From positions 1-64,000 of the IMG/VR virus record IMGVR_UViG_3300005617_000004: a stretch of DNA of 64,000 bases, one strand, 5' to 3'. Both the position numbers and the translations under genes were made by a program. Of this stretch, positions 35,552 to 56,013 are shown one piece after another. The DNA comes from a virus. The notes below the pieces were generated by a model that worked only from the letters and a program-made list of their open reading frames with translations, was not told where the DNA came from and did no database searches. The stretch's first letter is position 1, and every line of letters starts with the position of its first letter.

Positions 35552-36121
35552 TTACTGGATCTCGCGCAGCAGCTCACCTTCGAGGAACAGGTGGACGACC
35601 ACGGTCACCGAGAGACCGGTGGCGATGTCCAGCTGGACGTAGAAGTTCTGCACCGGGGGCAGGTAGATGCTGTGCAGCAGCGAGTAGATGTTGCGCTGCT
35701 CGGGACGGCCGAGGTTGGCGTACACCGTCGACGCGGTGAGCGCCGGCGCGGGGACGACAGTCTGCTGTTCGAGGCCGGCACCAGCCGACAGGATGAAGGC
35801 GGGGATGGTCAGGTAGACCTTCTCGCCGACCTGCACCTTGTACGAGCCGCGCTGGAAGAACGCGGCAGCGTCGGCGTACGTCGCGATGGCGGCGTAACCG
35901 AGGGTCTGACGCAGGGCGCGGATCGAGAAGCGCTTGGGCCAGCTGAGCTGACCGGCGGTCTGCAGGTTGGTCAGGAGGGCCGAGCGGCCCGCCGAGCCGG
36001 TGCTGAACAGCGTGACGCTGGTCTGCGAGGTGAGGGAAGCGCTGTCATACAGCGGCTGATGAATCGCCTCGAGACGGATGGATCCGCTGCGAGCGTCCTT
36101 GACGGTTCTGAATACGGGCAT
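35552..36121 (-). CDS. candidate major capsid protein (beta-rich, possibly single jelly roll)
   Basis: last gene of structural operon, GGAG RBS, strongly biased codons, alternating beta pattern; three related copies in window; fold is inference. Confidence 0.5.
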   Translation of the reverse strand: MPVFRTVKDARSGSIRLEAIHQPLYDSASLTSQTSVTLFSTGSAGRSALLTNLQTAGQLSWPKRFSIRALRQTLGYAAIATYADAAAFFQRGSYKVQVGEKVYLTIPAFILSAGAGLEQQTVVPAPALTASTVYANLGRPEQRNIYSLLHSIYLPPVQNFYVQLDIATGLSVTVVVHLFLEGELLREIQ

Positions 36122-36316
36122 GTTTTTGCTCCATCCGCTCATTGGCGGGTTTTGGTTTGGCGCGGCCGAGGGGATTCCTGCGGTTTTGCCGGTGGATACG
36201 GCTTGTTGTCGATCTCAGCCGCAGGCGCGGTGAGCAGCAAACCGAAAGAGACGAAGAGGTGTTGGAAAAGAACTGCTAGGGGCCGCGGGCGCCCCTAGGA
36301 TGCGCATGGCCCTACC

Positions 36317-37150
36317 TCAGTTGAGGTAGGTCTCCATGTACTTGTTGGCGTCGGTCAGGTAGCCGTCCACACCGGCGAGGTCGTCGCTGGCGAGGTCGTC
36401 TTCCATGTCGCCGGTGCCCTGGTAGGCCTTGGCGTCGACGTAGCCGTCCACGCCGGCCATCTCGTCACCGTTGCCGGTGCCCTGGTAGGCGCGGGCATCG
36501 ACGTAGCCGCCGGTGCCCTGGTAGGCGCGGGCGTCAACGTAGCCGCCCAGGCCTTCCATGCCGTTCACCGGACCGCGGACCGCGGCAGCGGGCGCAGCGG
36601 CGACAGCCGCGGGGCCGACCATCGGTGTGCCGTACACGAGGCGGGCGATCATGCCCGGCATCACGAGCTCGACCATCGAGGCGACGCCGCCGCCGATCAG
36701 CAGCGACTTGCCGATGTCGCCCTTGATGAACTTGTTGGCGAGGTAGCCGATCGTGAAGGGGACCGCACCGCCGACGATGCGCTTGGCCCAGGGGTTGGAC
36801 AGGAAGGCGCCGGCGCCCACCATGTTGAGGGCAGGCACGATCACGCTGGAGGTGGCGATGCCACCGAGCGCGTAGGTGCCGACCGCGCCGCCCGCGGCGA
36901 ACGCCATGTGCTTGAGCTTGTTGCGGCCCTTGAAGACGGCGAGCGCCTCCTTGGGAGCGCGCTTCGCAGCGCTGATGTACTGGTTGATGACGCCCACGGG
37001 GTTTCTCCTTGAGGTGCGGTGCTTGCGCCGGCGAGGATTCGCCCGCGAGGTGGATGAACGACTGAGACGGCGGCCGCGCTTGCCACGACGCCCGGGGTTA
37101 CCGAGCAGGGCGAGATGCAGGCCAGGGTTGGACATCAGCATGAGGGGCAT
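36317..37150 (-). CDS. membrane/virion protein with Arg-rich NP motifs and GYVD repeats
   Basis: basic N-terminus, hydrophobic helices, GYVDA(R/K)AYQGTG x3. Confidence 0.7.
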   Translation of the reverse strand: MPLMLMSNPGLHLALLGNPGRRGKRGRRLSRSSTSRANPRRRKHRTSRRNPVGVINQYISAAKRAPKEALAVFKGRNKLKHMAFAAGGAVGTYALGGIATSSVIVPALNMVGAGAFLSNPWAKRIVGGAVPFTIGYLANKFIKGDIGKSLLIGGGVASMVELVMPGMIARLVYGTPMVGPAAVAAAPAAAVRGPVNGMEGLGGYVDARAYQGTGGYVDARAYQGTGNGDEMAGVDGYVDAKAYQGTGDMEDDLASDDLAGVDGYLTDANKYMETYLN

Positions 37151-37362
37151 CGAGAACCTTCAGCCCGTCGGGGCGAGTCTCAGATAAACCGCTATGCTGT
37201 CTGTCGGGCGGAGGCCATCAGGCCGTCGCGCAACTACATGCTGATGCGCATCACCCTACGCATCCGGGCGCTCGATGTCAAAACTATTTCGGAGAGTACA
37301 TGTTGCCCGACTTGGGCGAGATGCCGCACAAACACAACACGTACATGTATTTGCAGTCGACT

Positions 37363-37380
37363 GTATATACGCGTATATAC
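37363..37380. promoter_or_regulatory. perfect 18-bp palindrome, probable operator
   Basis: GTATATACGCGTATATAC 6 nt before ATG 37387. Confidence 0.6.
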
Positions 37381-37386
37381 GGCAGC

Positions 37387-53725: not shown

Positions 53726-53771
53726 TCCCGAGGCTTGCGCTTGATGGCCCTCGAAGCACCCTGGAGGCGTC

Positions 53772-54458
53772 ATGCCCCTTGATGAAGATGACAGCATCGT
53801 GTCGCATTCGCGTTACGACCAGTTGTTCGGCTCGCCGCCCACCGTCTCGCCCCTGGAACAACCAGGGGCGAAGGGGCGCATGCACTCTCGAGAAATCTTC
53901 GAGGGTGAGCCGCCGGGCACCCTGCAGCCCGCGCCGCTGCTGACCCCCGTGCAGCGGGCGATCGTCGACGCAACCGTCGATCGTCTCGCCAAGATCGCGC
54001 GCAACACCAACTTCACCGCGTCGCTGCCCGCGCACTCGGTGCCGATGTACTGGTCCAACAACATCGACAAGTCGGCCACGGTCGTGGTGCCGGCCGCGGT
54101 GACCCCGTACCAGACGGTGGTCGAATACACCGCGCCGCCGAGCCGGTACGGCCGCATCAGCCAGTACGGGTTCGACGTCGCTGGGGGTGCCTATACCTAC
54201 GACGGCTCCTTGCTGTGGCGGTTCATGCTCAACGGCGTGCCGGTGCAGGACCTGTTCGACATCGCCGAGCACCGCGGCTCCCTGGTGCAGCCGGCCGAGA
54301 CCTTCATCATCGTGCCCATGGGCCAGAAGCTGCAGTTCCAGGTGGCACGTGCAGTCGCTGCCCTGGCAGACGACACGGTCGCCATGAAGTTCAAGGGCTG
54401 GGACTGGCTGCTGCGCCGCAACGCAGAGGGCACCAAGTCGTCGATCACGGCGTTCTAA
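53772..54458 (+). CDS. beta-sandwich virion protein candidate
   Basis: WRF..NG.P and ..GW C-terminal strand shared with neighbours. Confidence 0.55.
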   Translation: MPLDEDDSIVSHSRYDQLFGSPPTVSPLEQPGAKGRMHSREIFEGEPPGTLQPAPLLTPVQRAIVDATVDRLAKIARNTNFTASLPAHSVPMYWSNNIDKSATVVVPAAVTPYQTVVEYTAPPSRYGRISQYGFDVAGGAYTYDGSLLWRFMLNGVPVQDLFDIAEHRGSLVQPAETFIIVPMGQKLQFQVARAVAALADDTVAMKFKGWDWLLRRNAEGTKSSITAF

Positions 54459-54470
54459 GAGGATCGCACC

Positions 54471-54995
54471 GTGGGCGAGCTGTCCATCCAAGATCAGGTG
54501 CTGGTCGCCGAGCTCCAGCGCGTGCTGCGCGACAGCAACGTGCCCTTCCGTCGGCCGTCGAACGAGCAGCCCACGTTCTGGTCGTACCCGGTCTGCGAGA
54601 CCAACATCATCCCGCTGGCCAACGGCGGCTGGACCGACATCTTGACTCTGCGCGGGCTGCCGCAGTTCACGCAGCGGGTCGACAAGTACGTGGCGACCAC
54701 GTTCGGCGACCAGTCGCTCAGCGGCGTCGAGTTCCGGTTCGTGTTCAACGGGACACTGGCCCCCAACATGACGCTGGCCAACGGCGTGGACCACAACAAG
54801 GTGACTCCCTCCACCTTCCCTGTGGTGTTCCAGACCACCTCCTTCCTGGTCGAGGAGAAGGACTACTTGATCCTGCAGGCCCGCAACACCAACGTCTTTC
54901 AGCAGCTGGTGTGCGCCGCCCTGACCGGCTGGCGCTACAACAACCCGAACAGCGTCGACAAGACTCAGCGCTCGGTGATCACCGATGATACCTAG
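54471..54995 (+). CDS. beta-sandwich virion protein candidate
   Basis: P.FWS.P, FRF..NG, LTGW; paralogous to neighbours. Confidence 0.55.
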   Translation: MGELSIQDQVLVAELQRVLRDSNVPFRRPSNEQPTFWSYPVCETNIIPLANGGWTDILTLRGLPQFTQRVDKYVATTFGDQSLSGVEFRFVFNGTLAPNMTLANGVDHNKVTPSTFPVVFQTTSFLVEEKDYLILQARNTNVFQQLVCAALTGWRYNNPNSVDKTQRSVITDDT

Positions 54996-56013
54996 CCCCC
55001 AGCAGCTGGCGTGGGCGCTCAGCAAGGTGCAGGGAGACCTGTCCCGGTGGCCGCAGGCCCGGTCGGCGAAGTTGATGTTCCACCAAGGCACGACGCCAGT
55101 GATTCTGGTCACCGGCGCAGCCCCGAAGCGCCCTGAGCAGCTGCCCAAGGCCGTCCGGGTGTTCGTCGACGCGCTGCCCTACAACGTCCGCATCCTGTGG
55201 AAGGGCCCCACCGACCCGCGCGCGTCGATGCCGATCCTGCCCTCGACACCGATGCAGGACAAGCAGCTCGACAACGACATGTGGGCAGGAGCCCCTGAAG
55301 TGGTCAATGCGCCGCTGAAGATGTGGGGCCCGACCGAGCACCAGCCCGACCTGCCGATCGCCCAGGGTCCGCCGCTCGCCACCCAGGCCGAGTACCAGTT
55401 CGCTGCTTCCGTACGACTGCCGCAGTTCGCCACCCCGAACTTCTGGGCCAAGCCGTTCTACAAGACCGGCAACATCTGCTGCCCGCACTACGCGACCTTG
55501 ACCCGCGTCTTCTCGTATCGGGTGCCGTCGGACTACCTGCTGATCATGACCGGGCTCAGCTACGAGTTCTCGGATCTCGTGACCTTCGACCAGTTCACCA
55601 TGCACGTCCAGCGCGACGGCAACGAGCTCGGCCGCTGGAACGACATGCGCGCGCTCAACACGCCCGACCCGGCGGAGCAGTACGTGTTCGCCGGCCATTA
55701 CCGGCCGTTCCCCTTCTACGGCCGGTTCGACCACGACCAGATGCTGTCCATCGCCGTGACCGTGCTGGGGCCGTATCCGTTCACCAAGACGCCGGCCGAC
55801 ACGCTCGGCGGCTGTGTCACCGTCCACCCGTCCGGCTGGCTCGGTAGCCTGTACGACAACCGCGATGGCGGCGCACGGCCAGTTGACATGGGCGAATTGA
55901 ACGACATTGCTTTGGGCGAACCCAGCGATGACGGCGGATTCTCCCGTCTCCATGGTGGTGGCCACGCTCGTCAGGGTCAGTGGCAGCCCGATGACACAGG
56001 GACCAACGGATGA
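54985..56013 (+). CDS. beta-sandwich virion protein candidate
   Basis: PNFWAKP, Y.VP, SGW. Confidence 0.5.
   Translation: MIPSPQQLAWALSKVQGDLSRWPQARSAKLMFHQGTTPVILVTGAAPKRPEQLPKAVRVFVDALPYNVRILWKGPTDPRASMPILPSTPMQDKQLDNDMWAGAPEVVNAPLKMWGPTEHQPDLPIAQGPPLATQAEYQFAASVRLPQFATPNFWAKPFYKTGNICCPHYATLTRVFSYRVPSDYLLIMTGLSYEFSDLVTFDQFTMHVQRDGNELGRWNDMRALNTPDPAEQYVFAGHYRPFPFYGRFDHDQMLSIAVTVLGPYPFTKTPADTLGGCVTVHPSGWLGSLYDNRDGGARPVDMGELNDIALGEPSDDGGFSRLHGGGHARQGQWQPDDTGTNG

Follow-up and report, generated by a model that had tools for sequence, protein, structure and literature searches.

A putative virion module of a proposed tailless, internal-membrane bacterial virus with a 109.5-kb genome

We analysed the central part of a 64,000-nucleotide stretch of viral DNA (the window), which is the first 64 kb of the 109,520-bp IMG/VR record IMGVR_UViG_3300005617_000004, a genome with 110-bp direct terminal repeats (DTRs) that is rated complete. 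An original prediction from the sequence had read positions 35,552 to 56,013 as the structural module of a large, probably non-tailed, membrane-containing virus, and our analysis supports this reading. It is reasonably probable that the region forms the central part of the virion module (~35.5–72.5 kb) of a tailless jelly-roll virus of bacteria with an internal membrane. The module does not end at 56,013, as first proposed; it runs on to ~72.5 kb through glycosyltransferases, fibre, beta-helix and lectin-type proteins and more tail-anchored proteins. The argument builds on the gene inventory (Table 1), the absence of tailed-phage hallmarks and of packaging P-loop ATPases, and the linkage of core genes in Planctomycetota chromosomes, together with the modelled jelly-roll fold, nearest structural neighbours and self-association of a 196-aa protein.

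The 196-aa protein was originally picked out as a ~190-aa beta-rich capsid candidate, a description that holds. Its likely true start is the ATG at 36,121, where a GGAG site lies and where its homologues begin, giving ~189 aa. The family comprises 157 diverse cluster representatives, and more than 120 close clusters of 189–193 aa, without a name or Pfam domain, often reside on contigs of 70–115 kb. Pfam gave no match for 62 family members, and a search of PDB sequences with the family profile returned nothing significant. The AlphaFold2 (AF2) model from a 62-sequence alignment shows an eight-stranded jelly-roll with a predicted local distance difference test (pLDDT) of 88. Foldseek ranked capsid chains of Sulfolobus polyhedral virus 1 (SPV1) first, followed by PRD1 P5, the FLiP penton and coats of small viruses. 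A Foldseek-independent VIA comparison with 48,161 chains returned the SPV1 capsid as the sole match at Z ≥ 8 (Z 9.4 over 133 residues, root-mean-square deviation 3.4), and a second comparison gave Z 9.6 over 140 of 178 residues, the matched chains being from 6oj0. The next neighbours were HHIV-2 (Z 7.9), the STIV turret jelly-roll (7.5), HCIV-1 (7.4), SH1 (7.4) and, from P23-77, the VP16–VP17 complex (7.2) and VP17 (6.7–6.8), with PRD1 P5, PRD1 P3 and PR772 chains among the weaker matches. The nearest solved structures are shell proteins of icosahedral viruses with an internal membrane. We regard the predicted jelly-roll fold as secure and the modelled affinity to SPV1 as moderate. The fold alone is no proof of a shell role, because jelly-rolls of fibre and cement proteins score alike; a role as shell or vertex subunit is proposed.

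Modelling of four copies of the 196-aa protein predicted self-association, with an ipSAE of 0.58 versus 0.00 for the best control; at least 56% of contacts were shared among the four-copy runs and partner pLDDT was at least 78, although the method is calibrated on two copies, so that four-copy counts hold only roughly. The modelled interface is head-to-tail, with different surfaces contacting in the two partners, which would fit the need of ring-shaped capsomers. Two strong terminator-like hairpins bracket the gene, suggesting from their sequence that it may be its own transcription unit. The genome encodes three jelly-roll paralogs in all, and relatives encode four, two and one. The product of 37,300–38,349 aligns with the 196-aa protein at 38% over 200 aa by BLASTP, is recovered by a hidden Markov model (HMM) and matches PF14384 and PF00684. 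Its RHH domain is N-terminal, its zinc finger has the form CxxCxGxG, and its gene lies antisense within the structural operon; the collinear relative G003 has two such long forms. This paralog may link the DNA to the shell or have a regulatory role. The third paralog (50,005–50,856) aligns with the family profile at an hhalign probability of 98.3% (E 1.7e-14), and its G003 copy is 54.5% identical.

The absence of recognisable tailed-phage genes, noted in the original prediction for HK97 capsid, portal, terminase and tail genes, extends to the complete 109.5-kb contig. Searches of PHROGs and Pfam with ~80 proteins, including every open reading frame (ORF) of at least 300 aa, detected no capsid, portal, terminase or tail family and yielded almost no matches inside the virion module. 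Six-frame searches found no Terminase_6N (PF03237), TerL_ATPase (PF03354), Phage_capsid (PF05065) or Phage_portal (PF04860) in this genome or in four relatives of 80–97 kb, three of them DTR-complete, while the same searches were positive in control genomes. A six-frame Walker A scan revealed a single canonical P-loop, that of UvrD, and hence neither an FtsK-HerA-type packaging ATPase nor conjugation ATPases; relaxed motifs added only the SNF2 helicase and the primase-helicase. Every ORF of at least 400 aa could be explained, and no product resembles a terminase or portal. A 650-aa ORF was considered as a cryptic terminase or portal and rejected, since its product is a low-complexity helical protein.

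The remaining claims about the content of the module were largely borne out. Tail-anchored proteins with basic C-termini are encoded at 39,631, 40,085, 40,757, 47,009, 47,198, 47,610 and 48,761, with three more at 69.5–72.5 kb. This makes 8–10 in the module, close to the ten small membrane proteins first counted, versus none among 89 genes outside it (Fisher p = 3e-5, a count that included the C-terminal strand of the jelly-roll itself as a false positive). Their confinement to the module suggests, as judged from protein sequence, that the virion may contain a lipid membrane. A further, 277-aa membrane protein is 62–68% identical in relatives. The predicted transglutaminase-like protein is an 855-aa tail-anchored product whose core matches PF01841 (E 9e-6); its Cys-His-Asp triad (DCD...SHV...DP) is kept in the distant relatives G003 and G001, and homologues occur in integrated Planctomycetota blocks (below). 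The basic core-like proteins are likewise present: the four most basic large proteins of the genome adjoin one another at 43.3–46.5 kb, contain 23–43% Arg+Lys and are candidate DNA-condensing core proteins.

The four consecutive plus-strand genes for beta-rich proteins at 53,225–56,013 (166, 228, 174 and 342 aa) are also present, and the block is syntenic in four related contigs (L011–L014). The 228-, 174- and 342-aa proteins are paralogous (hhalign 96%, E 4e-9, and 94%, E 1.5e-7). We found no hhalign link of the four proteins to the jelly-roll family or of the 166-aa protein to the three paralogs, and the profile of the 228-aa family gave nothing significant against PDB sequences. An ESM Atlas lead to the central barrel of P23-77 VP17 (0.76) fell under the trust level and was not used.

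To place these genes, we compared the genome with its relatives. The 96.8-kb genome G003 is collinear with the virus at 33–73% identity, save for the gene of a 492-aa protein. G001 (86 kb) and G002 (80 kb) have little in common with it beyond the jelly-roll gene, which in both adjoins a gene for a large basic protein; both genomes also encode tail-anchored proteins, and no ATPase of terminase type was seen in either. Rhizosphere and groundwater sequencing runs of several studies contain near-identical DNA. When all species were scanned for the jelly-roll gene, two loci were retrieved, both on contigs binned into metagenome-assembled genomes (MAGs) of Planctomycetota, and one of these is a 62-kb contig collinear with the virus; one further copy, from the protein collection, is in an Okeania MAG. 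A profile search confined to Planctomycetota detected the gene in 6 of 401 genomes, and two of the six copies lie deep inside single contigs of 9.3–9.5 Mb with 33–44% G+C (G182:C1, ~3.85 Mb; G014:C1, ~5.90 Mb). Planctomycetota are firmly established as hosts of these integrated relatives, and the case for them as host of the 109.5-kb virus is good but unproven.

Both chromosomal blocks have an identical minus-strand gene order (Table 1), with basic proteins nearby. In their ~300-aa protein, one half aligns with the other at 95% by hhalign, and the halves align with the 166-aa family at 97–98%. The block ATPase has KaiC/RecA-like matches (PF06745, E 4e-6; phrog_6891, E 1e-12), and a search of PDB sequences gave only weak Schlafen/RadA matches. 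Thus, the jelly-roll, 166-type and transglutaminase (TGase) genes of the 109-kb virus are linked, beside an ATPase gene, in very distant relatives, which by analogy is the classic morphogenesis layout of jelly-roll viruses. No homologue of this ATPase was found in the four large genomes (G000–G003) at E ≤ 1. Neither an integrase nor attachment repeats were found around the blocks, which are therefore described as integrated virus-like elements of undefined extent. What is new here is that the jelly-roll, 166-aa and TGase genes recur together in Planctomycetota chromosomes, and that the 166-aa domain is in tandem and a P-loop ATPase is present in the chromosomal blocks, with none in the large viruses.

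The missing integrase and attachment repeats, together with the lack of classical encapsidation machinery, would also suit a non-viral element resembling a large plasmid, which would be transferred in membrane vesicles or by other means and whose jelly-rolls would bind carbohydrates or serve at the surface; cellular carbohydrate-binding proteins indeed often have jelly-roll and lectin folds (PMC8812541). We consider this very improbable, given that the contig ends in terminal repeats, encodes no conjugation ATPases and has a PolA-primase fusion, helicases and a methylase of its own as well as 33 tRNAs, that viral proteins top the structural list of the capsid-type jelly-roll, and that the family was recovered on virus-sorted contigs.

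Several points weigh against a tailless, membrane-containing virion. The SPV1 score of Z 9.4–9.6 only moderately exceeds a jelly-roll background of 7–8, within which fall a tail-fibre domain of Agrobacterium phage 7-7-1 (Z 7.9) and the cement protein of phage KHP40 (Z 7.1). Fibre and beta-helix proteins are present, as is a lectin resembling receptor-binding proteins of tailed phages, and automatic taxonomy labels the homologue clusters Uroviricota. Profiles may have missed highly divergent HK97, portal and terminase folds in the genome, and predicted structures cover only the 196-aa and 492-aa proteins. An ATPase is present in the integrated relatives, and we know of no bacterial precedent for enclosing 109 kb of DNA in the absence of a motor. 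Finally, the virion, its membrane and its shape are predictions from the genes. Some of these points would be accounted for by a very divergent tailed phage (Caudoviricetes), whose capsid, portal and terminase evade every profile, whose jelly-rolls serve as decoration, cement or fibre and whose membrane proteins serve lysis or superinfection exclusion. The genome size and the tRNA array are typical of large tailed phages, as are the fibre and beta-helix proteins and the lectin, which resembles minor-tail and receptor-binding proteins of actinophages. We nevertheless judge this explanation quite improbable, because UvrD provides the only P-loop in six frames, the ORFs of at least 400 aa contain no terminase or portal candidate and the four hallmark families are absent from all five related genomes. 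Moreover, ten tail-anchored and four protamine-like proteins do not fit the tailed-phage pattern, and the core genes of the integrated relatives adjoin a small P-loop ATPase gene, as in jelly-roll viruses.

For a tailless virus with an internal membrane, we infer from the gene complement a virion shape, a role for each protein and a mode of packaging. The outer lattice would consist of small jelly-roll proteins. The 196-aa family would make ring-shaped capsomers, and additional shell or vertex subunits would come from the 166-aa protein and the paralogous trio encoded at 53.8–56.0 kb. Beneath the lattice would be a lipid membrane bearing some ten tail-anchored proteins, and the membrane would in turn surround DNA condensed by the four protamine-like Arg-rich proteins. 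Such tailless particles would measure well over 100 nm across. The membrane-anchored transglutaminase/papain-fold protein could function as a protease in maturation, in cross-linking or as an enzyme for entry. Spikes would be formed by the fibre, beta-helix and lectin-type proteins sharing an N-terminal anchor domain, and the two glycosyltransferases may decorate them. As in SPV1, the genome would become enclosed as it condenses and the shell co-assembles around it, with no pumping into a shell made beforehand, a mode that is probable because there is no packaging ATPase.

Alternatively, the virion might not be icosahedral and might instead be enveloped, pleomorphic or ovoid, or have a filamentous nucleoprotein core, with an external membrane and with the jelly-rolls as matrix, scaffold or spikes. 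The missing packaging ATPase and the many membrane and protamine-like proteins would suit budding or wrapping viruses equally, and jelly-roll lattices can be transient scaffolds, as illustrated by the Orf virus scaffold protein (Z 7.0). This arrangement appears unlikely, if less so than a tailed phage, since the best structural neighbours are shells of icosahedral internal-membrane viruses, the modelled head-to-tail self-association suits closed capsomers, and several conserved small beta-proteins resemble shell-plus-vertex sets.

The spike candidates of the proposed tailless virion are encoded in the right part of the module. A ~120-aa N-terminal domain is common to the 836-, 939- and 132-aa proteins (BLASTP 47% and 33% over the N-termini) and looks, from sequence, like a common anchor for alternative spikes. 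The 492-aa protein belongs to a family of more than 1,700 homologues with a constant length of ~490 aa and no Pfam domain, on contigs of up to 150 kb, and because of this number and constancy a double jelly-roll coat was first suspected. That candidate was rejected: domain 1 has a lectin/GH16 fold in the model (VIA Z up to 17.9; SO2946, Z 16.4), no capsid is among the PDB and BFVD matches, the BFVD neighbours being receptor-binding, minor-tail and uncharacterised proteins without coats, and the gene is missing from the otherwise collinear 96.8-kb G003. The family profile gave nothing significant against PDB sequences, and a scan of genome contigs with the family gave no match. The 492-aa protein is probably an exchangeable adhesin and not a shell protein, as its predicted fold indicates, and its family is probably common to several virus groups.

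More tentatively, we propose that these viruses represent a new high-rank lineage of giant (80–110 kb), tailless, internal-membrane viruses of Planctomycetota that arose from small, ATPase-bearing, integrated jelly-roll elements; this scenario is possible, and we hold it with distinctly less confidence than the tailless virion itself. The large viruses would have lost the packaging motor and taken up protamine-like DNA condensation, either split a double-domain coat or kept single-domain subunits, and gained replication and translation genes. Literature searches found no description of such genomes, and no megablast match for the region was obtained among 50,697 phage records. As originally stated, known tailless membrane-containing bacterial viruses are usually far smaller than 64 kb and lack tRNA arrays. 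Genomes of such viruses described from bacteria and archaea measure about 10–30 kb, and prokaryotic double jelly-roll viruses have genomes of less than 20 kb (PMC8812541).

If the proposal is true, a widespread lineage of 80–110 kb, present in rhizosphere and groundwater and comprising more than 120 clusters of the coat-type protein, would top that ceiling roughly fivefold. It would also be the first bacterial counterpart of the SPV1 design of jelly-roll shell, membrane and nucleoprotein core with no motor, a design that has been interpreted as the ancestral state of jelly-roll viruses. Planctomycetota are bacteria with unusual endomembranes, and an opening onto their almost unknown virome would be gained. 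The pairing of small integrated elements that have the ATPase with large viruses that do not makes gain or loss of the packaging motor testable, as well as the interconversion of single- and double-barrel coat proteins. Should the lineage scenario hold, it would provide a bacterial parallel to giant eukaryotic viruses arising from small jelly-roll ancestors.

The virion module lies between two arms (Table 1) in a genome with 65% G+C and ~134 genes by codon-position G+C. The 33 tRNA genes at 26.9–34.6 kb (window 26,901–34,615) are strain-specific: the close relatives L004 and L005, whose jelly-roll protein is 90–93% identical, and the collinear G003 keep homologues of the flanking genes without tRNAs, so the array is a recent gain. 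ARAGORN reports a tRNA with anticodon CUA ('Pyl') at 34,539–34,615. Recoding of TAG through this tRNA was considered and rejected, as TAG terminates 19 confident ORFs and gene models are no better with readthrough; genome-wide TAG recoding is unlikely. The 650-aa Q/A/P/M-rich helical protein (genome 75,311–77,263, minus strand; 37% identity in G003) sits between the SNF2 helicase and small genes of no assigned role, and could, to judge by its composition, be a scaffold or condensate-forming protein. A 287-aa protein (50,772–51,635, minus strand) shows a PD-(D/E)XK-like motif by eye and has no family match. An 81-aa Phd-like protein (52,865–53,110, minus strand; phrog_375, E 1.4e-3) is encoded at the junction where the two structural operons diverge, and it may have a regulatory role.

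Table 1 Features of the virion module, its genomic surroundings and the integrated Planctomycetota blocks (TM, transmembrane segment)
Feature	Position	Strand	Basis or remarks
Left arm		+	UvrD helicase, ParB-like and Cas4-like proteins
tRNA island	26.9–34.6 kb		After left arm, before minus-strand operon
Minus-strand operon	~52.7 to 35.5 kb	-	First part of virion module
Plus-strand block	53.2 to ~72.5 kb	+	Second part of virion module
Right arm		-	SNF2 helicase, N6/N4 methylase, metallophosphoesterase, 1632-aa primase-helicase/PolA fusion
Terminator-like hairpins flanking jelly-roll gene	36298–36276 and 35526–35501	-	Stems of 8 and 11 pairs plus U-tracts
Jelly-roll capsid-type protein (predicted)	35552–36142	-	196 aa from first ATG; AF2 and structure comparison
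277-aa membrane protein	36317–37150	-	Arg-rich N-terminus, hydrophobic middle, acidic GYVDA.AYQGTG repeats
Jelly-roll paralog with BrnA-like RHH domain and DnaJ-type zinc finger	37300–38349	+	BLASTP, Pfam, HMM
161-aa conserved protein and two tail-anchored proteins (139, 222 aa)	39126–40753	-	Conserved in L005, G003, L029
855-aa tail-anchored protein	40757–43324	-	N-terminal transglutaminase/papain-like core, long acidic disordered region, C-terminal TM
Four adjacent Arg/Lys-rich proteins (397, 249, 214, 166 aa)	43333–46494	-	NPRRR-type repeats
Membrane-protein cluster	46544–49201	-	3-TM protein, then tail-anchored proteins of 61, 115, 383, 146 aa
Third jelly-roll paralog (C-terminal ~170 aa)	50005–50856	-	hhalign to family profile
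166-aa beta-rich protein	53225–53725	+	Candidate second shell protein; linked to jelly-roll gene in integrated relatives
Three paralogous beta-rich proteins (228, 174, 342 aa)	53772–56013	+	Common ~150-aa domain
Two glycosyltransferases (249, 569 aa)	56778–59278	+	PHROGs and Pfam
836-aa Gly/Thr/Ala-rich fibre-like protein	59306–61816	+	Sequence reading, BLASTP
492-aa two-domain beta protein	62482–63960	+	AF2 pLDDT 74; domain 1 predicted ConA-like lectin/GH16-type sandwich
939-aa beta-helix-like protein	genome 65329–68148		N-terminus common with 836-aa protein
132-aa protein	genome 69155–69553		Shared N-terminal domain alone
Integrated block, gene 1		-	TGase-like protein, PF01841 E 7e-11
Integrated block, gene 2		-	433–615-aa protein
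Integrated block, gene 3		-	Two tail-anchored proteins
Integrated block, gene 4		-	180–270-aa protein
Integrated block, gene 5		-	Jelly-roll protein, hhalign 99.9% to family
Integrated block, gene 6		-	~300-aa protein, tandem 166-type domain
Integrated block, gene 7		-	~185-aa protein
Integrated block, gene 8		-	~280-aa P-loop ATPase, GLPGSGKS / GEPGAGKS

Among known systems, the viruses of Helvetiavirae/Singelaviria (Sphaerolipoviridae SH1, HHIV-2 and HCIV-1; Matshushitaviridae P23-77; Simuloviridae) provide the next-best single jelly-roll (SJR) coats in the structural comparison (Z 6.7–7.9). They have an internal membrane and a block of an ATPase gene and two small coat genes, which is mirrored in the integrated Planctomycetota relatives. 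The jelly-roll gene and that of the candidate second coat protein (166-type) are side by side in those relatives; here they are 17 kb apart. Singelaviria genomes measure 16–31 kb and carry the FtsK-HerA-type ATPase as a hallmark, in contrast to the virus described here, which has none, and to the integrated relatives, whose P-loop ATPase matches the KaiC/RecA-like phrog_6891. Tectiviridae and other PRD1-type viruses (Bamfordvirae) have no tail; their internal membrane carries numerous small membrane proteins, a jelly-roll protein sits at the vertices and, as appears to be the case here, the spike proteins have a common N-terminal anchor. Unlike them, our virus lacks an A32-like ATPase and a protein-primed PolB, and its two-domain 492-aa protein matches lectins/GH16 and not capsid proteins; a double-domain protein does exist in the integrated relatives, in the form of the tandem 166-type protein. 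With no ATPase and an incomplete set of coat folds, membership in Singelaviria or Bamfordvirae is not shown.

SPV1 (Portogloboviridae), the best structural match of the modelled 196-aa protein, is described in an ICTV profile and a 2022 PNAS analysis. Its shell of SJR hexamers and pentamers is accompanied by subcapsomer proteins, membrane proteins and an inner lipid layer; its core is a nucleoprotein, and it has a glycosyltransferase (PMC8459092). A packaging ATPase is lacking (PMC8812541), and the coat protein takes a basal position in the SJR branch of helvetiaviruses (PMC8459092, PMC8812541). The SJR capsomer feature is found here in the models, and both viruses lack a packaging ATPase and have a glycosyltransferase, basic proteins, SJR capsid proteins of small size and a large set of membrane or subcapsomer proteins. 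However, SPV1 is a 20-kb, circular, hyperthermophilic virus of archaea (Sulfolobales) that has no polymerase, whereas the 109.5-kb genome described here has DTRs, bacterial-type terminators and ribosome-binding sites, replication genes, 33 tRNAs and several extra beta-protein families, and sequence identity is ~10%. The virus is thus not a member of Portogloboviridae, from which it differs in genome size, host and sequence. Its logic is nonetheless closer to that of SPV1 than to that of PRD1, because it dispenses with an FtsK-HerA-type ATPase.

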